From Promethearchaeota archaeon (GTDB lineage Archaea > Asgardarchaeota > Odinarchaeia > Odinarchaeales > JBHLKK01): a stretch of DNA of 10,942 nucleotides. Under the pieces are notes generated by a model. That model did no database searches. It saw nothing but the letters and a program-made list of their open reading frames with translations, and was not told the DNA's origin. The translations under genes and the position numbers were made by a program. Below, piece after piece: positions 1-10,899 of the stretch (positions are counted from its first letter, which is position 1; the number at the start of each line of letters is the position of its first letter). The stretch is taken from contig JBHLPL010000065.1 of NCBI GenBank assembly GCA_048939465.1, positions 1 through 10,942 of the forward strand, given 5' to 3'.

Positions 1-95
1 ACGAGTACCGAAGTTGATTTTTCTACACCCCATCCATTGGCGTCTATCATGTATATGTTATCAGATAGCTTGCAGGTATCAGCAAGTATCTCCAT
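1..95 (-). CDS. Probable independently initiated downstream protein (N-terminus only), possibly an MBL-fold metallo-hydrolase
   Basis: ATG 95..93 lies 4 nt after a perfect GGAGGTGA. The 31 visible residues (MEILADTCKLSDNIYMIDANGWGVEKSTSVL) resemble the first beta-strands of MBL-fold proteins, but the HxHxDH motif is not within the window. Confidence 0.45.
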   Translation of the reverse strand, partial: MEILADTCKLSDNIYMIDANGWGVEKSTSVL

Positions 96-317
96 CTTCT
101 CACCTCCCCCAATGATCGGTAGCACCACTATCTCATCGGTATTGCTCACCTCAGTTCCAAGAGAAGCAGATAAACCATTTATTAGAACTATTACTTTGTC
201 TTCGCTTATCCTGACGCCCAGCAAATCCTTGACTTTAGTCTTTTTGCTGATCTGTATCTCCTTCTTCTTGAATTTGGCCAAACTTGCAACATACCCTAGC
301 AACCTAATCTTGACCAT
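1..317 (-). CDS. MoaD/ThiS/SAMP-family ubiquitin-like protein (72 aa, ending LPIIGGG) continuing in frame into a downstream domain; 3'-partial at the window edge
   Basis: Not in the ORF track. Manual translation from ATG 317: MVKIRLLGYVASLAKFKKKEIQISKKTKVKDLLGVRISEDKVIVLINGLSASLGTEVSNTDEIVVLPIIGGG-EK-MEILADTCKLSDNIYMIDANGWGVEKSTSVL, with no stop before position 1. The beta-grasp hallmarks are MVKIRLLG, VLING and DEIVVLPIIGGG. A GGTGA SD (329..325) overlaps the FOR stop codon, 7 nt before the ATG. MoaD-like genes commonly follow AOR-family genes. Confidence 0.85.
   Translation of the reverse strand, partial: MVKIRLLGYVASLAKFKKKEIQISKKTKVKDLLGVRISEDKVIVLINGLSASLGTEVSNTDEIVVLPIIGGGEKMEILADTCKLSDNIYMIDANGWGVEKSTSVL
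100..107 (-). promoter_or_regulatory. Shine-Dalgarno GGAGGTGA embedded in the Gly-Gly codons of the ubiquitin-like ORF
   Basis: The minus strand reads ATT GGG GGA GGT GAG AAG ATG. It matches the archaeal anti-SD consensus. Confidence 0.6.
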
Positions 318-324
318 CAAGTCT

Positions 325-2163
325 TCACCGGGTCATTTTTACGTATTCTCCAAGTTCCTCTGCCACATACGCCAGCCCCAACTTCTCCAGCGTTTTTTTG
401 GTGGGTATCCCCCTCTCATCCCATCCTCTGGCTTCGTAATACCACGAAAGCATTTTTTCGTATCCATCTCTATCGAGCTTTCTTCCTTTTAGTGGGCCTT
501 TCGTAAGAGGTTCTTCGAACCATCTTTCTGGAACAGAGTCCATTTTCCTGTTCCATTCGCCTCCGAGCTCTCGCACCCAGAATGCTCTAATCAGTGCGTA
601 TATCCTATCACCGATGACGTATAACTCATTCATCGTGTAAGAGATACCCGTTACAGCCTTAATGTATTTAGGATACCAGTCCATTTCAAACCCAAGTTCA
701 ATCCACGGAAGTCTACAGGTACCCATCCCCTCGAAAATCCCTCCCCTTATCCTTTGGAATTCAATTATCTTATCAACCTTGTCTCTACTGTATGATTCTC
801 TCCCTACTTTCATTTCCCATGCTATAATCCACGCATCTTTATGGTGTGCGCCGATGGGGGAGGTGCCGAAAGCCAGAGCCATGCCTGGATTACAGTGACA
901 GTCATATGCAGAGGCCACCAATCCTTTGGAATGGATCGCCCAAACGTGTGACCCTTGTCCGAGTCTCTGTGAGAATCGCTCGACACCGTCTGCAATAGTA
1001 TTGCCTAAACCTCTCCTGTAGGCAGTATCCTTAATCAGCTTCTTAACTTTCTCAAAATTGCCCCACTCTATCTTCTCGTCGATCAGACCCTTCTCTGAGG
1101 CCTCCATTGCAAAGCTAATCGTTCCTCCCAATGTTATGGTGTCGATCCCGTAATCGTCAGCCAGCCAAATCAGAGAGCCGATCTCCCTCAGATCGTCCAT
1201 TCCGATATTTGCCCCCAGCATTCCTACATTCTCATAATCCATTTCGACGGGTCTCTTCTCTGTGTCAAGGATTCTGTTCCCGCATCGCATGTTGCAGAGC
1301 GGACATCCAATTCGATCATGCTTCATTTCCTCCATCACATCACCGCTAATACTCTCTGCCTGCTCGAAGCGACCCTCTTTAAAGTTGTATGAGGGCAAGC
1401 AGGATGTCTCTTGGCACCAAGAATGCACGCCCATAGTTCCTTGCCTAATCCAAAAGTCATAGTTCTCTTTCTTCTTTACTTCATTGTAGCCTTCTCGACC
1501 TAGCTTCTTTAGTTCATCCGGATCCGCCAAAGGAGTTTTTTTGGAACCTTTAATCACTACTGCTTTCAGACCTTTGGAGCCCATTACTGCCCCGATGCCT
1601 GGTCTGCCTCCTGCCCTACCCTCCATTGACATGATCACAGCGTATAGAACTTTGTTTTCGCCACCTTGCCCAATGCTCAAAACACCCGCATTCTTTCCAT
1701 ATTTCTCCTCAAGCCTCTTGTGTGTTTCAAAAGACCCAAGTCCCCACAAGTCTGCTGCTGGAAGAATCTCCGCTTCATCATCATCTATATAGACATATAC
1801 GGGTTTATCTGAGGCTCCTTCAAAGATAATCGCATCAAAACCTGCCTTTCTTAATTGAATTCCTCCATATGTGCCTATATTTCCATCTCCATATCCACCG
1901 GTAAGTGGACTTTTTGCTGCAACTATCAGCTTTCCGCTGCTTGGTAATACTGCGCCAGTCAATGGACCTGCTGCCATTATGAGCTTGTTTTCAGGAGCTA
2001 AAGGATCAACTCCAGGTTTGAGTTCGTCCCAGAGGATTTTGACCGCAAACCCCCTCCCGCCAAGGAACTCCAAAGCCCATTTCCTATCATATTCTTGGGT
2101 CTTGATTTCTTGGTTTGAAAGATTGATTCTCAAGAATTTGCCATTCCACCCCTTCAACAACAT
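325..2163 (-). CDS. for: Tungsten-containing aldehyde:ferredoxin oxidoreductase, formaldehyde ferredoxin oxidoreductase (FOR)-like
   Basis: The motifs KGWNGKFLRINLS, GGRG, ENKLIMAAGPLTG, AAKSPLTGGYGDGNIG, EGRAGGRPGIGAVMGSKGLKAVV, the [4Fe-4S] ligands GCPLCNMRCGN plus GTCRLPW, DYENVGMLG, GAHHKDAW and YYEARGWDERGIP closely follow Pyrococcus FOR as recalled. The track start (2175) is likely too far upstream. Use ATG 2163, or TTG 2157 (MKGWNGK, 5 nt after GGTGA). Confidence 0.93.
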   Translation of the reverse strand: MLLKGWNGKFLRINLSNQEIKTQEYDRKWALEFLGGRGFAVKILWDELKPGVDPLAPENKLIMAAGPLTGAVLPSSGKLIVAAKSPLTGGYGDGNIGTYGGIQLRKAGFDAIIFEGASDKPVYVYIDDDEAEILPAADLWGLGSFETHKRLEEKYGKNAGVLSIGQGGENKVLYAVIMSMEGRAGGRPGIGAVMGSKGLKAVVIKGSKKTPLADPDELKKLGREGYNEVKKKENYDFWIRQGTMGVHSWCQETSCLPSYNFKEGRFEQAESISGDVMEEMKHDRIGCPLCNMRCGNRILDTEKRPVEMDYENVGMLGANIGMDDLREIGSLIWLADDYGIDTITLGGTISFAMEASEKGLIDEKIEWGNFEKVKKLIKDTAYRRGLGNTIADGVERFSQRLGQGSHVWAIHSKGLVASAYDCHCNPGMALAFGTSPIGAHHKDAWIIAWEMKVGRESYSRDKVDKIIEFQRIRGGIFEGMGTCRLPWIELGFEMDWYPKYIKAVTGISYTMNELYVIGDRIYALIRAFWVRELGGEWNRKMDSVPERWFEEPLTKGPLKGRKLDRDGYEKMLSWYYEARGWDERGIPTKKTLEKLGLAYVAEELGEYVKMTR

Positions 2164-2966: not shown

Positions 2967-4004
2967 TTATGCAAATTTGGTTGAATCAATGGTTTTCAAT
3001 TTTTCGATTAGCTTTGGGATGATTTCAAATAAGTCTCCGACAATACAGTAATCTGCAGCCTTAAAGATTGGCGAATTGGCGTCTTTGTTGATGGCGATAA
3101 TCTTCTTGGAGTTTTTCATGCCTATCAGATGCTGTATTGCTCCGGAAATACCACAAGCGATGTAAATATCAGGCTTAACAGTCTGACCTGTTAATCCAAC
3201 TTGATGGCCATAGGAGATCCATCCAGCATCTACTGCCGCTCTCGAGGCCCCAACCTCTGCACCAAGAAGGTCTGCCAACTCTTTTATCAATTTGAAACCC
3301 ATGGGACCAGCGACTCCCCTGCCACCACTAACGATTATTCTCGCGTTTTCTAAACTCATTTCATCGTCTTTTCTAATAATGTCAAGAATGTCCACAAAGA
3401 GACAGCTTTCTCCTAATTTGATTTCCTCCGGTATAATCTCCCCCCTTCTTGAGGTGTTCTTCTCTAATGGCTCGAATATTCCCCGTCTCACAGTAGCCAT
3501 TTGAGGGCGTCTATCAGGATTTACTATCGTAGCCATTACGTCTCCGCCAAAAGCAGGCCTAATTTGATGAAGAATTCTCTCATATTCCTTTCCATTCTTC
3601 TTATCTCGCCAATTCCCAATTTCTAGATCTGTGCAGTCGGCAGTCAATCCTGTCTCTAGTCTAGTCGCAATTCTGGGCGCAAGATCCCTGCCGGTGGTGT
3701 CCGCAGCGAAAAGGAGTATTTCTGGTTTTTCTTTTCTTATAAGTTCTGTTAGGACATGTGCATAAGGTAATGTCGAATAAGTTCTAAGTTTTTCATTCTC
3801 TACTAGATAGACTTTATCTGCTCCGCGTTCTATTAGTTCGGGAGCAAGTGATTCAACTTCAAACCCAAGAAGCAAGGCGGATAAATCGATTTCAATTTCA
3901 TCTGCTAACCGTCTTCCCTTAGCTAACAGTTCTAGAGTAGATCTCTTGACTTTTCTATCTTGATGATTCGCATAAATCCAGACCCCTCTATATTCGCCTT
4001 TCAT
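2967..4004 (-). CDS. etfA: Electron transfer flavoprotein subunit alpha (FixB family)
   Basis: GVWIYA, KPEILLFAADTTGRDLAPRIATRLETGLTADCT, IRPAFGG, RPQMATVR, and the FAD-domain motifs IIVSGGRGV, VGASRAAVDAGW, QVGLTGQTVKPDIYIACGISGAIQHLIGM and IAINKDANSPIF. Confidence 0.97.
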   Translation of the reverse strand: MKGEYRGVWIYANHQDRKVKRSTLELLAKGRRLADEIEIDLSALLLGFEVESLAPELIERGADKVYLVENEKLRTYSTLPYAHVLTELIRKEKPEILLFAADTTGRDLAPRIATRLETGLTADCTDLEIGNWRDKKNGKEYERILHQIRPAFGGDVMATIVNPDRRPQMATVRRGIFEPLEKNTSRRGEIIPEEIKLGESCLFVDILDIIRKDDEMSLENARIIVSGGRGVAGPMGFKLIKELADLLGAEVGASRAAVDAGWISYGHQVGLTGQTVKPDIYIACGISGAIQHLIGMKNSKKIIAINKDANSPIFKAADYCIVGDLFEIIPKLIEKLKTIDSTKFA

Positions 4005-4806
4005 ATGAATTCCCCAAACTCACGTCATCTTCTTCCAATCTTTTCAGAAAATTATCGATAACTTCATCTATGGTTTCACCCTCAACCATGTACCTGTCCC
4101 TCTGAGAAATCATCTTCTCGATTTTCCTTATTTTTGTTGGTGAACCAGAAAGACCAATCTTGCACTCATCCACTCCAATATCCTTTGTCGATAATGCTGT
4201 CAGAGGCATCTTTGTTGCTCTGATTATCCCTGCAAAAGTTGTGCCTCTAGGTTCATTTGCAGTATTCGTGATTGTCAACAAAGCGGGTAGTTTCACTCTG
4301 GCTATTTCATAACCACCTTCAAGCATGCGTCTTGCTTCTGCGTATTTTCCCCCAACTTTGAGATTGTCAACATATGTTATTTGAGGAATCCCAAGGCGTT
4401 CGGCAACACCTGGGCCAACTTGGCCAGTATTCCCATCGCTTGCTTCCATTCCACACAATATCAGGTCATAGCAGTCAAGCTTTTTGATCGCACAGGCTAA
4501 AGCGTAAGAGGTTGCCAGAGTATCTGATCCTGGAAGTCTTTTATCTGAGAGCAATACAGCTTCATCTGCCCCCATTGCTAGAGCTTCTCTAAGAACATCC
4601 CTGGCTTTGGGCGGCCCCATTGAAACTGCGGTTATTTTTGCATCGGATTTTTCTTTAATGGTAAGTGCCGCTTCTAACGCGTTTTTATCATAAGGGTTGA
4701 TTATTGAGCTGGCTTTTTCCCTGTCGAGTGTTCCGTCTTCTTTTATCCCGACATAGCCCTTTGGATCAGGAACCTGTTTTATTAAGACGATAATGTGTAG
4801 AGTCAT
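3988..4806 (-). CDS. etfB: Electron transfer flavoprotein subunit beta (FixA family)
   Basis: IIVLIKQVPD, INPYDKNALEAAL, SMGPPKA, LAMGADEAVLLSD, GSDTLATS, DGNTGQVGPGVA and GLSGSPTKI. ATG 4806 overlaps the upstream TGA (TGATG). The gene overlaps etfA by 17 nt. Confidence 0.97.
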   Translation of the reverse strand: MTLHIIVLIKQVPDPKGYVGIKEDGTLDREKASSIINPYDKNALEAALTIKEKSDAKITAVSMGPPKARDVLREALAMGADEAVLLSDKRLPGSDTLATSYALACAIKKLDCYDLILCGMEASDGNTGQVGPGVAERLGIPQITYVDNLKVGGKYAEARRMLEGGYEIARVKLPALLTITNTANEPRGTTFAGIIRATKMPLTALSTKDIGVDECKIGLSGSPTKIRKIEKMISQRDRYMVEGETIDEVIDNFLKRLEEDDVSLGNSYERRI

Positions 4807-7373
4807 CAAATCCCACTCTCATATTCCGCTAATGCCGCAATTTCCACCGGCGTAATCTTTCTATATACCTCTCTCGGTTTCTTTCTAACTCCCTGGACAG
4901 TGAGAAGGTCTTCAATTTTGATTCCAAATAATTGCTGGTTTTCCTTCAATAACGGCAGAATCCTTTGCCAATCTTGAGTAGATAAAGAAACGATTTTCCC
5001 ACCATTAAGTTGGTCTTCCCCTACCGTCTGCCAAGGATCTCTCAAATAGATTGAACTTGCAGCAGCAAGGGGAAGCAAATTCCCTCCATGATATGGAGTC
5101 TCCTGTTCAACGAGTTTTCCACCTTCGTTGAACGTAATTCCATTCAGGATGATGAAACCATTTGCGGCCATGCAGGATTCGCCCATGTAATCCTTGCATG
5201 AGCCATTTATCACGGCAGTTGAACTTCCGACAGCATTGATCAGTGGTCTATCATTTAAGTCTCCCAATACAAATGTGACTCCGCCTTTGGCACCGTACTC
5301 AAACGCTTTTCCTGCATCCCCAAAAATCACTAGTTTTCCCGACCTAAAGCAATACGCAACTGAATCTTGAACGCTTTCATGAACATAAAATTCAGGACCA
5401 TCTGCAAAAGCAGCAAGACAGTCTCCAACCCGACCATATACATCGATCTTCATCGTGTCCCGAGCTACAAGCCCCGCTCCGAAGTTTCTTTGCCCTCTAA
5501 AGTTGTAGGCTATGATTTCCCGCCATCCGAGTTCATAAGCTTTGCTAAGAAACCGACATGTCCCGTCATCTCCTTCTGGGTCGAAATCACGCACATCGAT
5601 GATCAAAGTCTGGTTTGGGCGTAAGGGCTTTCTTATTCTTTCTCTATATTCAAAGTCGACCAAACAATATCGGCTTTCTAAGCCAGATTTTATGGACGGT
5701 GCAGAACTGAATAATCTAAAAAGCGCTTTCTCAATTAGACTAACTATGTCGCTTCTTTTCTTATCACCAGTTTCGTATCTCCTATCAATCAGGTGTGTCA
5801 ACGCCTTAATTGCCAGAGACCTCTCCTTATCCCCTTTCTCTCCAAACTTCCTCATTCTTTCTGCAAAATAGTGCAATTCATCGAAATCCCATTCTTTGAT
5901 GGCCTTTGAAGCATAATGGAAGAAGTTGGTGGGCCTCTGCAGTATTTTTGATATTTCTGCATCTATGGTGGGAGAAGTACTCTTTTGATAGATAGGCTTC
6001 TTCTTATAATGAAGTTGATGATTTGCGGTCGAGATGGGTTTTCCAAACTTATCGGTGCACACCAGATTTCTTGATTCATCGACTGTAAACAGGAAGGCAC
6101 CACCATCGGTATAGCTTCCTCCTCTGGCATACCAGTACCTATCAGCCCTTGGATGAAATCTATCGTCACTTTCCGCTAGGCTCTCAAGCATTGCGTCTAT
6201 TGCTTGTTTCTCAGATGCAATAAGCCCTATTCCGAGTGTTCCTTCTTGAAGAGCAAAAACCTGTGGCCTCAACATCGAAGTATCTGTTATACCAATAAGT
6301 TGAAATCGCCTTTTGAGAGGGTCATTTCTAGCAATTATGAAAAACCATGGACCATCCGGGGAGCCGTGAGCATGTGTCGTTTGAATCACGCGATATATTT
6401 GCTTTTTTTCTTCGGGCAGCATCACAAAATCTCTTTCGGTTGTTGGAGCGATAGCCTCGATGGAATATTCCAATGGGTAACGATACACTCTCGTCAGTAG
6501 ATCCCAGTATAGGGCAGCAACTTCTGTGTCCGTCAAAAAGAGAGGGTACATGTTTCTTTGCCTAAGATACTCAGCTATCGAATAGTAGTTTGCGAAATCA
6601 CCGTTGTGAACCAAAGCATCATGTAATCCAATAAAGGGATGCGCTCCTCCCGGATGCCAGATTTTGCCTTTTGTCGGATACCTCTGGTGCCCCATCCAAA
6701 TATGAGCCTCAAGATCTTCAAGCAAATAATACTTCAGAACTTGCTCCGCATATCCGACGATCTTTAAAACCATCATATTCTTTCCGTGAGAAACAACAAA
6801 AGCCTTTTTTTTGACAAGTGAAGCATAGAACTTCTCGTTCAAACTGAAGCTATTTCGATAAATGAACTCATCTTCTGCCACGCTTGGATCTGAGTCAGGT
6901 TTGCTTTCCTCAATGAAGCTTTGTAATACGTCCTCGTCTACTTTCGTAAAATACCTCCAAACTTCAGGAGGTCTAACATCTAATCCAAGGCTCCTATAAT
7001 CTTGTAAGGTCGGAATCCTCTCCGTATAATCAATGGCAAGATATGGTTTTAGGAATTCATCCTCAACGCTCTTCCTTGATTTAGGATCTAGATAAGCCAC
7101 CTGTATCAGATAATCCTCCTCCAAGACTCTTTTGGGTACCCCCAGTTGCATGTGAGAAAGCCCGACCGCCGCTAAACCACCACCCTTCCCATTACCTCTG
7201 TTGTGCATCTGCACCATTGGTCGTAGCAGATGTTCCCCTCTAATTGGGAGAGAACAGGCAACTCCGAGAACACCACATCCGCCTTCGGCTATTCTCTGTT
7301 GAAACTTTGAGTTAGAAGAATATCTGAGCATTTTTTCCTTCGAGATATTCTTGTTGTCTGACTTACTCGTCAT
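4806..7373 (-). CDS. gltB1: Glutamate synthase-like subunit: class II glutamine amidotransferase (GltB1) fused to a GXGXG beta-helix domain (GltB3)
   Basis: The Ntn nucleophile context AEGG-CGVLG (Cys33), HNRGNGKGGG, GHQRYPT, HPF, VHNGDFANY and TDTEVAAL mark the GATase domain. The C-terminal repeats GQRNFGAGL, GRVGDCLAAFADG, GDAGKAFEYGAKGG and LINAVG mark the GXGXG domain. Confidence 0.88.
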   Translation of the reverse strand: MTSKSDNKNISKEKMLRYSSNSKFQQRIAEGGCGVLGVACSLPIRGEHLLRPMVQMHNRGNGKGGGLAAVGLSHMQLGVPKRVLEEDYLIQVAYLDPKSRKSVEDEFLKPYLAIDYTERIPTLQDYRSLGLDVRPPEVWRYFTKVDEDVLQSFIEESKPDSDPSVAEDEFIYRNSFSLNEKFYASLVKKKAFVVSHGKNMMVLKIVGYAEQVLKYYLLEDLEAHIWMGHQRYPTKGKIWHPGGAHPFIGLHDALVHNGDFANYYSIAEYLRQRNMYPLFLTDTEVAALYWDLLTRVYRYPLEYSIEAIAPTTERDFVMLPEEKKQIYRVIQTTHAHGSPDGPWFFIIARNDPLKRRFQLIGITDTSMLRPQVFALQEGTLGIGLIASEKQAIDAMLESLAESDDRFHPRADRYWYARGGSYTDGGAFLFTVDESRNLVCTDKFGKPISTANHQLHYKKKPIYQKSTSPTIDAEISKILQRPTNFFHYASKAIKEWDFDELHYFAERMRKFGEKGDKERSLAIKALTHLIDRRYETGDKKRSDIVSLIEKALFRLFSSAPSIKSGLESRYCLVDFEYRERIRKPLRPNQTLIIDVRDFDPEGDDGTCRFLSKAYELGWREIIAYNFRGQRNFGAGLVARDTMKIDVYGRVGDCLAAFADGPEFYVHESVQDSVAYCFRSGKLVIFGDAGKAFEYGAKGGVTFVLGDLNDRPLINAVGSSTAVINGSCKDYMGESCMAANGFIILNGITFNEGGKLVEQETPYHGGNLLPLAAASSIYLRDPWQTVGEDQLNGGKIVSLSTQDWQRILPLLKENQQLFGIKIEDLLTVQGVRKKPREVYRKITPVEIAALAEYESGI

Positions 7374-7377
7374 ATTA

Positions 7378-8928
7378 TCACTTCAAATGGTCGAGGTGAA
7401 TGAGGTGGTTAAATACACCTTTATGGAACTCTATCTCACACTTAGGCCGAAGATCCCTTATGTTTCTCAACTCAAGCCTTGTCAGAATGTAGTGCCACTG
7501 CTTTTTCCACGAATGATATAAGTTGATTATCCTCTGAGCACCCCATTCTGGATCAATCAGGTGCATTAGAGCTTGATCTGTTGTGGCTATACCAGAGGGA
7601 CAGCCTCTTCCTCTCTCACAGTTTTCGCACCTTTTGCATCCAAGCGCAACTAATTCAGCAGTTCCAATTACGGCCCCATCAGCTCCCAAAGAGATGATTT
7701 TTGCCACATCAAAAGCCGTCCTTATCCCGCCGCTAGCCATTACAACAATTTCATCCCTTACTCCTTCCTTAACCAAATAATTATGAACTATTGGAATTGC
7801 GTATTCAATTGGCATAGCGATATTCTTTTTTGCCACATCAGGAGCTGCACCTGTTCCGCCACATCCTCCGTCGATCTGTAATATATTGGCGTTTGCATAG
7901 TAACTTCCAATTGCAACCATATCTACATCAGTAGGAGTTGAGACCTTAACAGAGACCAGCACTTCAGGATTGATATCTTTCATTAATTGAACATGCCTAT
8001 AGTGGTCTTCAACGGAGTAAACGTTATGGAACGGAAAAGGAGAAAACAGACTTATATGCGGAACAACCTCTCTTATTTTTGCAACGTCTGCAGTAACTTT
8101 ATCTGCTAATAAATGGCCGCCTAATCCTGGTTTTGCGCCTTGAGCATATTTGAGAACTACAATCCTGGCTCTCTTTATGGTTTCAGCATTTACGCCGAAA
8201 TGACCCGTTGCAATTTGAGTAATAACATTATCCTTGTACGGGATTAATGAATCAGGATAGCCTCCTTCTCCAGTGCTTGTGAAAATGTTCCAAGCTCTGG
8301 CAGCTTTGGCCCTTGCAAGCATTACGTTCAGACTTATGGAGCCAAAAGACATATCTGCGCCATATACTGGAATTGGAAGCTTGATTTGAGGTCGCCCGTC
8401 ATGCCTTTTGTTCAGAACTATTGTAGTATCAACTCTAGTATTCTCAAATGACTCATAGTCGACTGGCACATCCTCGTGTAACTCGAAATCAAATCTTATT
8501 CTGTCAAACCCCCCGCCAGAACTGCCAATCCTATGTTCATAGATCCTTGGAATTGTACCATTTTCGGCCTGTTCCCAAGTTGACAGTATCAAATCTGAAG
8601 TCCAGCGGTAATCACCGAGCGTCAAATATTGCGAACTAGTTCTGACTGTCAGCGCATTTGCAGGGCATGACTCTATACATCGCTCACAGGAAATACCAGA
8701 ACATGATTCATTTGAATTATCCAGACGGACATATCCTTCAGGCTTCTTAAAGGCTTCATAATCGATTGACGCAGAGCCCAAATAGTCTGGGCACACCTCA
8801 ACACACATTCCACAGGCAGTACACTTGGCTCTATCTAGAATCACTTCATGCTTTCTTATTGTGCTTGGATAAGGGAATCTTGTACGCTTTATTCCGGGTA
8901 TAGAGGCAAGAATCTGTTTTTGCATCAT
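7378..8928 (-). CDS. gltB2: Glutamate synthase FMN-binding subunit (GltB2) with an N-terminal 2x[4Fe-4S] ferredoxin domain
   Basis: CTACGMCVEVCP and CSGISCERCIESCP, then MSFGSIS, STGEGG, QIATGHFGV, KYAQGAKPGLGGHL, FSPFPFHNVYSVED, VSVKV, IDGGCGGTGAAP, ASGGIR, LGADG and GCKRCENCERGRGCPSGIAT. Confidence 0.92.
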   Translation of the reverse strand: MMQKQILASIPGIKRTRFPYPSTIRKHEVILDRAKCTACGMCVEVCPDYLGSASIDYEAFKKPEGYVRLDNSNESCSGISCERCIESCPANALTVRTSSQYLTLGDYRWTSDLILSTWEQAENGTIPRIYEHRIGSSGGGFDRIRFDFELHEDVPVDYESFENTRVDTTIVLNKRHDGRPQIKLPIPVYGADMSFGSISLNVMLARAKAARAWNIFTSTGEGGYPDSLIPYKDNVITQIATGHFGVNAETIKRARIVVLKYAQGAKPGLGGHLLADKVTADVAKIREVVPHISLFSPFPFHNVYSVEDHYRHVQLMKDINPEVLVSVKVSTPTDVDMVAIGSYYANANILQIDGGCGGTGAAPDVAKKNIAMPIEYAIPIVHNYLVKEGVRDEIVVMASGGIRTAFDVAKIISLGADGAVIGTAELVALGCKRCENCERGRGCPSGIATTDQALMHLIDPEWGAQRIINLYHSWKKQWHYILTRLELRNIRDLRPKCEIEFHKGVFNHLIHLDHLK

Positions 8929-10346
8929 TCGTCACTTCCGAAAATTCTCATTTGGAGATCTTCGTAGAACATGGCTCTACCGATCTCACCTCTTTGCCTT
9001 CTCACTTCACGTAAACCCATTCCGCTGAGAACTTCTAGAAGCTGATCTCTCCAAGATCCCACCAGGTTGACGATCCTCTGAACTGCCCATTCAACGTCTT
9101 GGTCTTTAATTCCTAAAGGACAGTCTTCGGAGTCAAGAGTACCCTGGCAGATCTTGCACCCCAAGGCAATCTGGTAAGCCAAATCAATGGTTACAGCGTC
9201 TGCTCCAAGAATTATAGACTTAGGAATATGAGCTGCTTCAGCCACTCCACCGCCAAATATCAAAGTGACCTCATTCCGAATATTCTTTTTGACGAGATAC
9301 GAATGAACCTGACAAATTGCATTCTTAATTAATTCTGGATCCTCTTCTACCGCTTTGTTATCAATGTGAAGAGAGATCATATCTGCACCCTTCTCTGCCA
9401 GCATATATGCTGTCTCATGAGAGTTTTCATCATATGAAACACGAAACGAGACTAGTGCTGATGGATTTATTCTCTTAATTCTTTCCAGAGAATCTTGAAT
9501 TTGATGATCCTTCTCATTAAGGTCAACCTCAACGATTCTTGAAAGCTTGATTAGGTAACCAAACTCATCAATTTCACTGGGCTTGAACGTAGGAATTATG
9601 CTTGACTTGTACGGAAGTAAGCTTTCTGAGTAAACCTCCGAATCTACATTTGAAAAAGTTCCGAGTCTTGAAGCTGCCTTTGCAACAGCAAGCTGAAGAT
9701 TATCTTTTGTTTTTGAGCAGGCAGGTGCACCCAAAATTATCGGTATTGGAATCCCGATGGTCTTTGGGGGAGTAGAAAGAAGCCTTCCATCTTCTCCAAA
9801 GCGAAGATAGGGTAACTTCCTTCCTAAATCAACCGATGTGGAAATGTATTCTCTCCCATGGATTCCGTCTCTTGTAGGTCTTACGATTTCTGAAAAATCA
9901 AACCAAAGGCTGTCTAATCCTCTTCCAGCGAAAGGACCTTTATAGCCTGTCCCAGAAACAGGCACCTTACCAGTTTCTGCCTCAAAATGGATTGTTCTTA
10001 TTCGATTCGGTGTATAGTAGGAGTTACCTAATTTCTTAAATTCCGGATTGGCTTCAACCGAAATTGCGTTTTTGGGACAGTTTAGAACACAAGAAAAACA
10101 ACCCCTGCATAATTCGTGAATGGGGTCCGCTATTTTCCCGTCTTCGTCGACTAGGTGAACACCATATATGCACGCTTGAGCGCATTCTTGAACATTTACA
10201 CAGTTATTATAGCGTTTAACAATGAATCTGGGGGGTATCTTAATTAGGGGAGGGGCTTCTTTTACCTCAATTCGATATCTTACAAACTTTGTCTTAGGCG
10301 TTCTAAAGGGCTTAGATACCGCTTCTTTCTTTGACACATTTGTCAT
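8925..10346 (-). CDS. Degenerate GltB2-like paralogue (ferredoxin plus FMN-barrel-like domain), probably non-catalytic
   Basis: The true start is ATG 10346 (473 aa); the extra 86 codons in the track are antisense to the Lrp gene and promoter. It aligns by eye with the adjacent GltB2: VHSYLVKKNIRNEV vs VHNYLVKEGVRDEI, ILGADAV vs SLGADGA, EWAVQRIVNL vs EWGAQRIINL. It lacks MSFGS, TGEGG, QGAKPG and DGGCGGTG. Confidence 0.85.
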   Translation of the reverse strand: MTNVSKKEAVSKPFRTPKTKFVRYRIEVKEAPPLIKIPPRFIVKRYNNCVNVQECAQACIYGVHLVDEDGKIADPIHELCRGCFSCVLNCPKNAISVEANPEFKKLGNSYYTPNRIRTIHFEAETGKVPVSGTGYKGPFAGRGLDSLWFDFSEIVRPTRDGIHGREYISTSVDLGRKLPYLRFGEDGRLLSTPPKTIGIPIPIILGAPACSKTKDNLQLAVAKAASRLGTFSNVDSEVYSESLLPYKSSIIPTFKPSEIDEFGYLIKLSRIVEVDLNEKDHQIQDSLERIKRINPSALVSFRVSYDENSHETAYMLAEKGADMISLHIDNKAVEEDPELIKNAICQVHSYLVKKNIRNEVTLIFGGGVAEAAHIPKSIILGADAVTIDLAYQIALGCKICQGTLDSEDCPLGIKDQDVEWAVQRIVNLVGSWRDQLLEVLSGMGLREVRRQRGEIGRAMFYEDLQMRIFGSDE

Positions 10347-10408
10347 GAGAAGGATTTTTATACTAGAACTATTTAAGGATTCTTGCAAGAATACTGAATG
10401 AACATTCA
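10347..10408. promoter_or_regulatory. Divergent control region with interleaved TATA boxes and two 14-bp palindromes
   Basis: Plus strand: purine-rich GAGAAGGA (10347-10354), then TTTTTATA (10355-10362). Minus strand: TTAAATA (10376..10370), 23 nt before ATG 10346, with no SD. Palindromes: ATTCTTGCAAGAAT (10379-10392) and TGAATG-AA-CATTCA (10395-10408). Confidence 0.6.
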
Positions 10409-10434
10409 AAAGAAGGGCGAGGAATGTGAAAAAA

Positions 10435-10899
10435 ATGAAAATCAGAGATCTCTCTGCCTTGACGGAAGAAACAGATGTTAAAATCCTAAAAGTCCTACTC
10501 TCGGAAGCCAAGCTATCAAATAGACAGATTGCAAAAAGGGTCGGTGTTTCTGTTAACACAGTAATATCAAGAATAAGGAAAATGGAGGAAAAAAGGATAA
10601 TCAAAGGGTATACTGCCGTTTTGGATCATGAAATGTTGGGATATGATCTGACTGTAATTACAGAAATAACAGTCTCAGAGGGCAGACTATTGGAGATGGA
10701 AAAAGAAATCGCGAAAATACCAAATGTTTGTGCTGTCTACGATGTTACTGGCCTTATTGATGCTATAGTCGTTGCGAAGTTTAGGAATAGAGAAGAACTA
10801 AGCAAATTCACCAAAGGCTTACTTGCGCTACCTTTCATTGAGAGGACAAATACACATCTGGTATTAACAACAGTAAAAGAGGAGTATAAAATGGTCTAG
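10435..10899 (+). CDS. Lrp/AsnC-family transcriptional regulator
   Basis: HTH region DVKILKVL..EAKLSNRQIAKRVGVSVNTVISRIRKMEEKRIIKGY, linker LGYDL, and RAM domain VYDVTGLIDAIV...ERTNTHLVL. ATG 10435 lies 5 nt after the SD-like GGAATGTGA. GTG 10426 is an alternative start. Confidence 0.95.
   Translation: MKIRDLSALTEETDVKILKVLLSEAKLSNRQIAKRVGVSVNTVISRIRKMEEKRIIKGYTAVLDHEMLGYDLTVITEITVSEGRLLEMEKEIAKIPNVCAVYDVTGLIDAIVVAKFRNREELSKFTKGLLALPFIERTNTHLVLTTVKEEYKMV

Follow-up and report, generated by a model that had tools for sequence, protein, structure and literature searches.

A one-base deletion joins an AOR-linked ubiquitin-like gene to a metallo-hydrolase gene in one Asgard archaeal species

In one species of Asgard archaeon, the gene for a ubiquitin-like (Ubl) protein that follows a tungsten-type aldehyde:ferredoxin oxidoreductase (AOR) gene has no stop codon after its last glycine codon, and reads on in frame into the gene for an MBL-fold metallo-hydrolase. 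We hold it as almost certain that this fusion is real, that it belongs to this species specifically and that it was born by the deletion of one base. Our best explanation taken as a whole, in which the species-specific deletion is followed by processing of the fused product, has a little less than an even chance of being right.

Results

The Ubl reading frame continues into a hydrolase gene

The window, that is the whole stretch of DNA analysed, covers bases 1 to 10,942 of C122, a contig of a public metagenome-assembled genome (MAG; 152 contigs, 91% complete). Judged by the names of the proteins most closely related to its own, the genome belongs to the Asgard group Hodarchaeota/Promethearchaeota. 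The operon lies on its minus strand and consists of the following features.

325 to 2163, minus strand: AOR, tungsten-type aldehyde:ferredoxin oxidoreductase, 612 aa, first gene of the operon (Pfam AFOR_N 4.8e-76, AFOR_C 3.9e-115)
102 to 317, minus strand: Ubl (ubiquitin-fold) domain, ThiS/MoaD-like, 72 codons, C-terminus PIIGGG, without a stop (PF02597)
102 to 104, minus strand: deletion site of 1 nt, the missing A lying between bases 103 and 102 (junction alignment)
100 to 107, minus strand: Shine-Dalgarno (SD) site GGAGGTGA, 4 nt 5' of the hydrolase ATG (alignment with relatives)
96 to 101, minus strand: linker GAG AAG (Glu-Lys), formerly the 3' part of the stop codon plus a 4-nt spacer (sequence)
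1 to 95, minus strand: MBL-fold metallo-hydrolase, codons 1-31 and part of the 32nd, ATG at 95-93 (exact in-frame overlap with contig C89)

The Ubl gene is directly adjacent to the AOR gene on the same strand: seven bases separate the AOR stop codon (TGA 327-325, -) from the Ubl ATG (317-315). Five further genomes of the phylum show this pairing. The sequence-only reading had described a 72-residue Ubl protein lacking a stop after its GGG, followed by Glu-Lys and an in-frame ATG in a frame open to the window edge, and every part of that description held. The last Ubl codons, ATT GGG GGA GGT (113-102, -), run into GAG AAG (101-96) and the in-frame ATG at 95-93; no stop codon follows up to base 1, and the frame has 302 further codons after the Ubl in all. 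The start of contig C89 is the reverse complement of window bases 1-23, an exact 23-nt overlap that keeps the frame; the hydrolase gene carries on as C89 bases 24-831 and a convergent PEBP-family gene comes next. Joined, C122 and C89 contain a 374-aa ORF from ATG 317 made up of the Ubl, Glu-Lys and a 300-aa MBL-fold hydrolase, and the contiguity of the two contigs is borne out by four bridging contigs (see below). The annotation of the public MAG, in which the break between C122 and C89 cuts the fused gene, lists two partial genes of 106 and 276 aa.

Further upstream on the minus strand (2967-10604) lie genes for ETF alpha and beta, preceded by three large genes whose products have 4Fe-4S motifs and domains of the glutamate-synthase type. 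The latter encode an 855-aa protein (sub-threshold matches to GXGXG and GATase_6) and two Glu_synthase proteins of 516 and 559 aa; taken together, the genes resemble a split glutamate-synthase-like complex linked to ferredoxin or ETF. Between the ETF and AOR operons lies an orphan 129-aa ORF on the plus strand (2459-2848), which has no Pfam match and is called as 91 aa in Logan contigs.

Relatives carry two genes and one additional base

We aligned the junction across 14 related loci, which fall into four distinct junction versions. In a genome of the same genus the gene order is AOR-Ubl-MBL-PEBP; a TGA follows the terminal GGG of its Ubl, and 4 nt further on the MBL gene starts in the +1 frame. 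The same two-gene arrangement is found on eight contigs with the 72-aa protein P0003, on four with P0002 and on two more, the downstream gene in the relatives being a separate MBL gene of 300 aa. The AOR of the window is 90.5% identical over 612 aa to that of these relatives, and its gene order matches theirs. At the junction the relatives read …GGAGGATGAGAAGATG, …GGAGGATGATTAGATG or …GGAGGATGAGACGATG, compared with …GGAGGTGAGAAGATG in the window; in the core, GGAGGATGA of the relatives stands against GGAGGTGA, from which exactly one A is absent. GGA TGA has thereby become GG TGA, so that the codon GGT consists of the rest of the ancestral GGA and the T of TGA, and the former stop codon (TGA, 102-100) is now out of frame. 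Because the downstream gene lies in the +1 frame, loss of this one A both abolishes the stop and joins the two frames. The sequence-only reading had offered a recent loss of the stop codon as an alternative to a conserved fusion, and it is this alternative that the comparison with relatives shows.

The AOR-linked Ubl of more distant genomes of the phylum again ends in GGG and a stop; one of these genomes has a separate MBL gene 8 nt further on. In a close relative (L028, ENA scaffold SCHO22-1…_38738; L028:40-100, equivalent to window 93-113) CGA replaces TGA. Its Ubl ends in GGGR, a natural one-residue C-terminal extension, and a TAA stands 1 nt ahead of the MBL ATG.

The fused architecture is not conserved in orthologues; inspection of the relatives finds two genes with a stop directly after the glycine codons, which by the refutation test that the sequence-only reading had set makes the change a private mutation. 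No ThiS domain was found in any of the 18 MBL homologues at E <= 1e-10 (216-336 aa), and no ThiS-MBL fusion among the cluster members listed for these 18 (78-305 aa). An exhaustive HMMER search with the 106-aa protein of the window against 1.84 billion representatives returned 48 relatives, all of 68-95 aa and none of them a fusion. A search of 5.8 billion proteins yielded no unfused 72-aa copy of the species' own sequence, and an exact-pattern scan of metagenome contigs gave no match to either junction variant. A search for related loci found nothing among metagenome contigs, and among genome contigs only the same-genus contig. With no other fusion among the MBL homologues and the 48 ThiS representatives, the loss of the stop codon is recent and species-specific, and as far as public data go the fusion is confined to one species. 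The ancestral state, as comparison of these loci shows, is a three-gene operon of AOR, a 72-aa Ubl with GGG and a stop, and a 300-aa MBL hydrolase.

The allele is present in separately assembled contigs

An artefact, in which assembly or sequencing introduced a one-base indel where coverage is poor towards a contig end, was suspected at first; an assembly indel had also been named in the sequence-only reading. The junction lies about 100 nt from the end of C122, and the C122/C89 overlap of 23 nt compares with 77 nt for most overlapping contig ends in the assembly, which suggests a coverage gap. Against this stands the 374-aa protein P0070, the second member, beside the partial hydrolase protein of the MAG, of a 90%-identity cluster. 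P0070 matches the predicted fusion residue for residue, and its gene lies on four contigs, which come from separate assemblies of the four runs SRR34261216 to SRR34261219. These Logan contigs cross the C122/C89 joint without gaps or indels at 99.86-99.96% identity, and all carry GGAGGTGAGAAGATG. The junction is thus identical in five independent assemblies, the MAG and four others, and the free C-terminus that a stop right after Gly-Gly would give is missing in the window and the four contigs alike. Since the four contigs carry SNPs relative to the MAG, they are not one and the same consensus; the suspected artefact is ruled out by these separate assemblies, and we consider it very improbable.

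Each of the four contigs differs from the MAG at one to eight positions. The SNPs within recognised genes, of which ETF-alpha has one, AOR two and MBL one, are all synonymous, and the others are intergenic or lie in the orphan ORF. One contig (L036) has five of its eight SNPs within 2520-2580, which marks the stretch of the orphan ORF as the least constrained part of the region. Because the SNP combinations form at least three haplotypes in all, the deletion predates the present diversity of the population. The deletion allele is common to all sampled strains of the species.

The hydrolase retains an ancestral ribosome-binding site

The sequence-only reading had pointed out an internal SD within the Gly codons. 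An SD is indeed there, GGAGGTGA standing 4 nt before ATG 95, yet it did not evolve within the fusion: the relatives have GGAGGA at the same place, their last two Gly codons always being GGA GGA. Since they keep this motif, the site is ancestral: it is where ribosomes bind for the hydrolase gene, and it overlaps the Gly codons and the former stop; the deletion merely extends the match to GGAGGTGA.

Motif counts in this genome indicate that such a site carries information. SD-like pentamers precede 25% of the first ATGs of long ORFs, compared with 6% of internal ATGs, and GGAGG precedes 7.5% and 1.2%, respectively. Genome-wide, first ATGs show a 4- to 18-fold enrichment of SD-like motifs with a G peak at -12 to -7. 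By these counts the organism initiates translation of some of its genes by SD, and the enrichment makes an SD at the spacing seen before ATG 95 meaningful. With the ancestral SD and ATG 95 both retained, the 300-aa hydrolase could still be produced alone.

The other junction of the operon has a similar layout. The last AOR codons, CGG TGA, form GGTGA, an SD-like motif 10-14 nt before the Ubl ATG (window 318-330, -), so at both junctions the SD of the next gene lies inside the end of the preceding one.

The Ubl protein belongs to the ThiS family and is conserved in sister species

The Ubl matches PF02597 (ThiS) with 30.7 bits against a cut-off of 22.5 (query residues 8-73, profile positions 4-76 of 76), and its matches to the NCBIfam models moaD_arch, SAMP1 and Urm1-like are all sub-threshold. 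It is 78-82% identical to 72-aa MoaD/ThiS proteins from Hodarchaeota MAGs, and G71 and G72 are invariant among 46 aligned relatives. The closest solved sequence relative is Pyrococcus furiosus SAMP2, PF1061 (PDB 5LDA chain B, 1RWS), a weak match (E 0.011-0.017) that spans residues 15-72 and reaches the C-terminal Gly-Gly of both proteins; PF1061 ends in SGG, not GGG. The 48 ThiS-family representatives, counted by C-terminus and not by gene context, end in GGG (25/48), in xGG (16/48) or in 1-21 extra residues (7/48). These seven, together with the GGGR end of one close relative, hint that C-terminal trimming is usual in the family. The AOR-linked Ubls found in the phylum end in Gly-Gly-Gly rather than Gly-Gly (L004-L007, L013; P0023-P0069).

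Among sister species the Ubl is 90-96% identical with a dN/dS of about 0.06, a mark of strong purifying selection which argues that the Ubl matters. The Ubl of the window has 13-16 differences from its relatives, mostly conservative, with a dN/dS of 0.06-0.13 and no further lesion. Its amino-acid differences exceed the expectation from MBL divergence; its dS is high too, and the changes are split between both branches. A check of dN/dS and polarity found no clear relaxation of the Ubl, 72 codons giving such a check little power. Position 54, Asp or Glu in most relatives, is Gly in the window, which could be a first sign of relaxed constraint, and the deletion may be too recent for decay of the Ubl to have become visible.

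The hydrolase is intact

The downstream enzyme had been guessed to be an MBL protein, and the extension on C89 bears this out, its HxHxDH motif reading HRHTDH. Counted from ATG 95, the joined hydrolase has exactly 300 aa, and its alignment with four relatives of 300 aa each covers the full length with no gaps among them. Across 36 aligned sequences, H73, H75, D77, H78, H155 and H223 never vary. The fusion and its relatives are listed under PF00753, and no NCBIfam subfamily reaches its cut-off.

The triad of AOR, GGG-ended Ubl and MBL is conserved across this Hodarchaeota group. A different family of the phylum also has it (L007:1471-2627, genome G012); there the MBL gene lies in a 338-aa open frame. 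We also considered a general linkage of this MBL to AOR and ThiS and rejected it, as homologues in Aigarchaeota, Nitrososphaeria, Freyarchaeota and others have unrelated contexts. In the first three of these groups, the nearest homologues have YjbQ, radical-SAM and Oxidored_molyb genes close by.

The fused product may be cleaved or tolerated

In this one species, loss of a single A removed the stop and put Ubl and hydrolase in frame as a 374-aa ORF. In the sequence of events that we propose from there, ribosomes starting at the kept SD and ATG 95 would make the normal 300-aa hydrolase, and those starting at ATG 317 would make the fusion, in which the C-terminal Gly of the Ubl would be blocked. 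One of the two JAMM/MPN+ proteases of the genome might then cleave the fusion after the Gly run, for which the natural MoaD-MoaE protein offers a precedent. Cleavage would leave both proteins functional, and would so explain how the allele could spread. Given a real allele, we put cleavage after the Gly run, the likeliest fate of the fusion, at about even odds.

The main inference of the sequence-only reading, a polyprotein that would need JAMM cleavage and might give two isoforms, is a candidate reading on the present evidence. That reading had suggested looking for a JAMM gene in the genome, and there are two with an intact HxHx(6-7)Sx2D motif, one at C7:3778-4545 and one split over C142 and C59; neither is at the locus. 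The split gene encodes a small, stand-alone JAMM/MPN+ protein (G000:C142:9358-9618 and G000:C59:5598-5906, on overlapping contigs), and in its motif, HSHPAPPYPSDTD, the distance from His to Ser is one residue shorter than in the canonical HxHx7Sx2D. The genome further holds three other ThiS-family genes, three E1-like (ThiF/MoeB) genes with PF00899 above the cut-off and none of them at the Ubl locus, one MoaE gene and four more AORs. Several points speak against processing: the linker is only two residues long, and the fusion occurs in a single species whose sisters keep a free, highly conserved Ubl. A complex prediction for Ubl and hydrolase scored 0.00, below the mark, and was used for neither reading.

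The strongest rival holds that the fusion is not processed at all. The Ubl would then be dead as a carrier or modifier, its paralogues would cover for it, and the allele would have drifted to fixation as an early stage of pseudogenisation, with the hydrolase still produced from its own SD and ATG. We regard this as a credible reading that falls somewhat short of probable. It fits a fusion that is private to one species while relatives retain the stop, the Gly at a usually acidic position 54, and the lack of any JAMM gene in or beside the operon. Moreover, the paralogous Ubls, the E1-like genes and the MoaE of this genome, its several AORs, and the published redundancy of archaeal Ubls, which includes the AOR-adjacent TK1065 (PMC11323500), mean that a disabled Ubl could be tolerated without processing. 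What weighs against it is the constraint on the Ubl described above, both the low dN/dS and 90-96% identity in sister species and the freedom of the window Ubl from any other lesion. Processing and tolerated loss come out about equal, at roughly even odds, with a small share left for an uncleaved functional fusion.

That small share covers two versions which we assess jointly and consider quite unlikely. In the first, the beta-grasp domain would serve as an attached module of the hydrolase, for example by docking to AOR or to cofactor-maturation proteins; in the second, the deletion would have been selected because it takes the hydrolase SD from GGAGGA to the full anti-SD complement GGAGGTGA. 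Known Ubl-enzyme fusions such as ThiS-ThiG, MoaD-MoaE and the Azoarcus MoaD-AOR (PMC1779556) lend the idea some support, as do the tight coupling of the Ubl-MBL pair in all relatives within the group, its recurrence in another family of the phylum and the fixation of the allele in at least three haplotypes. On the other side, the fusion is found in a single species and no search produced a second ThiS-MBL fusion; the MBL homologues of other archaea are unlinked to AOR or ThiS, and the known N-terminal Ubl fusions need cleavage for activity (PMC4443979, PMC8832034).

Programmed -1 frameshifting on the G run, which could restore termination at the out-of-frame TGA 102-100, seems extremely improbable when judged from the sequence. 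Five consecutive G do stand ahead of the site, and slipping by -1 would bring ribosomes to AGG TGA, but T GGG GGA differs from the canonical X XXY YYZ heptamer, termination there would leave GGR rather than GG at the end of the product, and the relatives need no such device.

Discussion

Eukaryotes always produce ubiquitin as fusion precursors. A further possibility is that the fusion described here is a working, newly evolved precursor of this style, in which the Ubl would be produced solely as an inactive Ubl-hydrolase precursor, the hydrolase would also be made alone from the internal start, and release by JAMM would gate the supply of sulfur carrier for AOR cofactor maturation. We think this unlikely, and any usefulness of the newborn fusion is at present a candidate property.

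The setting of the locus is a familiar one. AOR-linked MoaD/ThiS genes are a described neighbourhood, with a proposed role in the molybdopterin sulfur supply for the tungsten cofactor (PMC1779556, PMC2948915). In Thermococcus kodakarensis, UblC/TK1065 adjoins the AOR gene TK1066 and acts both as sulfur carrier and as protein modifier, and Ubl sulfur carriers are functionally redundant in Thermococcus (PMC11323500). Our locus shares with these the small Gly-Gly-ended beta-grasp gene directly after a tungsten-type AOR. It differs in the GGG end, seen here and in AOR-linked relatives, in the stop codon that this species lacks, and in the next gene, which encodes an MBL-fold hydrolase, not a radical-SAM protein or MoeB.

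Adenylation of ThiS/MoaD/SAMP proteins requires a free C-terminal glycine (PMC2948915), and fused forms are known to be released by JAMM proteases: HvJAMM1 splits a linear Haloferax SAMP1-MoaE fusion into active parts (PMC4443979), and DRJAMM cuts the natural Deinococcus radiodurans MoaD-MoaE protein, DR2607 (PMC8832034). Iyer et al. proposed this cleaving role for JAB proteins in all fusions of ThiS or MoaD with other proteins (PMC1779556). As in the Haloferax and Deinococcus fusions, the Ubl here occupies the N-terminal part, and a peptide bond to the product of the neighbouring enzyme gene blocks its Gly-Gly; there Ubl function requires JAMM release, and here JAMM genes with intact motifs are present in the genome. 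In contrast to them, the partner is an MBL hydrolase, the fusion stems from a stop loss in one species and is not conserved, and cleavage is a proposal.

A ubiquitin-fold protein with residues beyond its C-terminal Gly, which needs processing before use, is likewise what ubiquitin precursors are. In Caldiarchaeum subterraneum a Ub precursor is processed by CsRpn11 (PMC6043591). There and in eukaryotes the precursors are conserved and their processing has been demonstrated, whereas here a single recent deletion affects a Ubl of the ThiS/MoaD type. What is new here is the MBL-fold partner, a single-base stop loss caught while it is still species-specific, and the Asgard archaeon as host.

The case also has a practical side. 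In a protein database clustered at 90% identity the full fusion is hidden as a non-representative member, and searches of the representatives miss P0070.

The locus shows how a Ubl precursor can be born from a single-base deletion at a translationally coupled junction, in a host equipped with JAMM proteases beforehand. Should processing take place, existing deubiquitinase-like enzymes would render such fusions free of cost; if it does not, the locus would record a dated first step towards the loss of a redundant AOR-linked sulfur carrier. Should the fusion indeed work as a precursor, it would be a natural snapshot of how a ubiquitin-fusion gene originates, in the lineage closest to eukaryotes.
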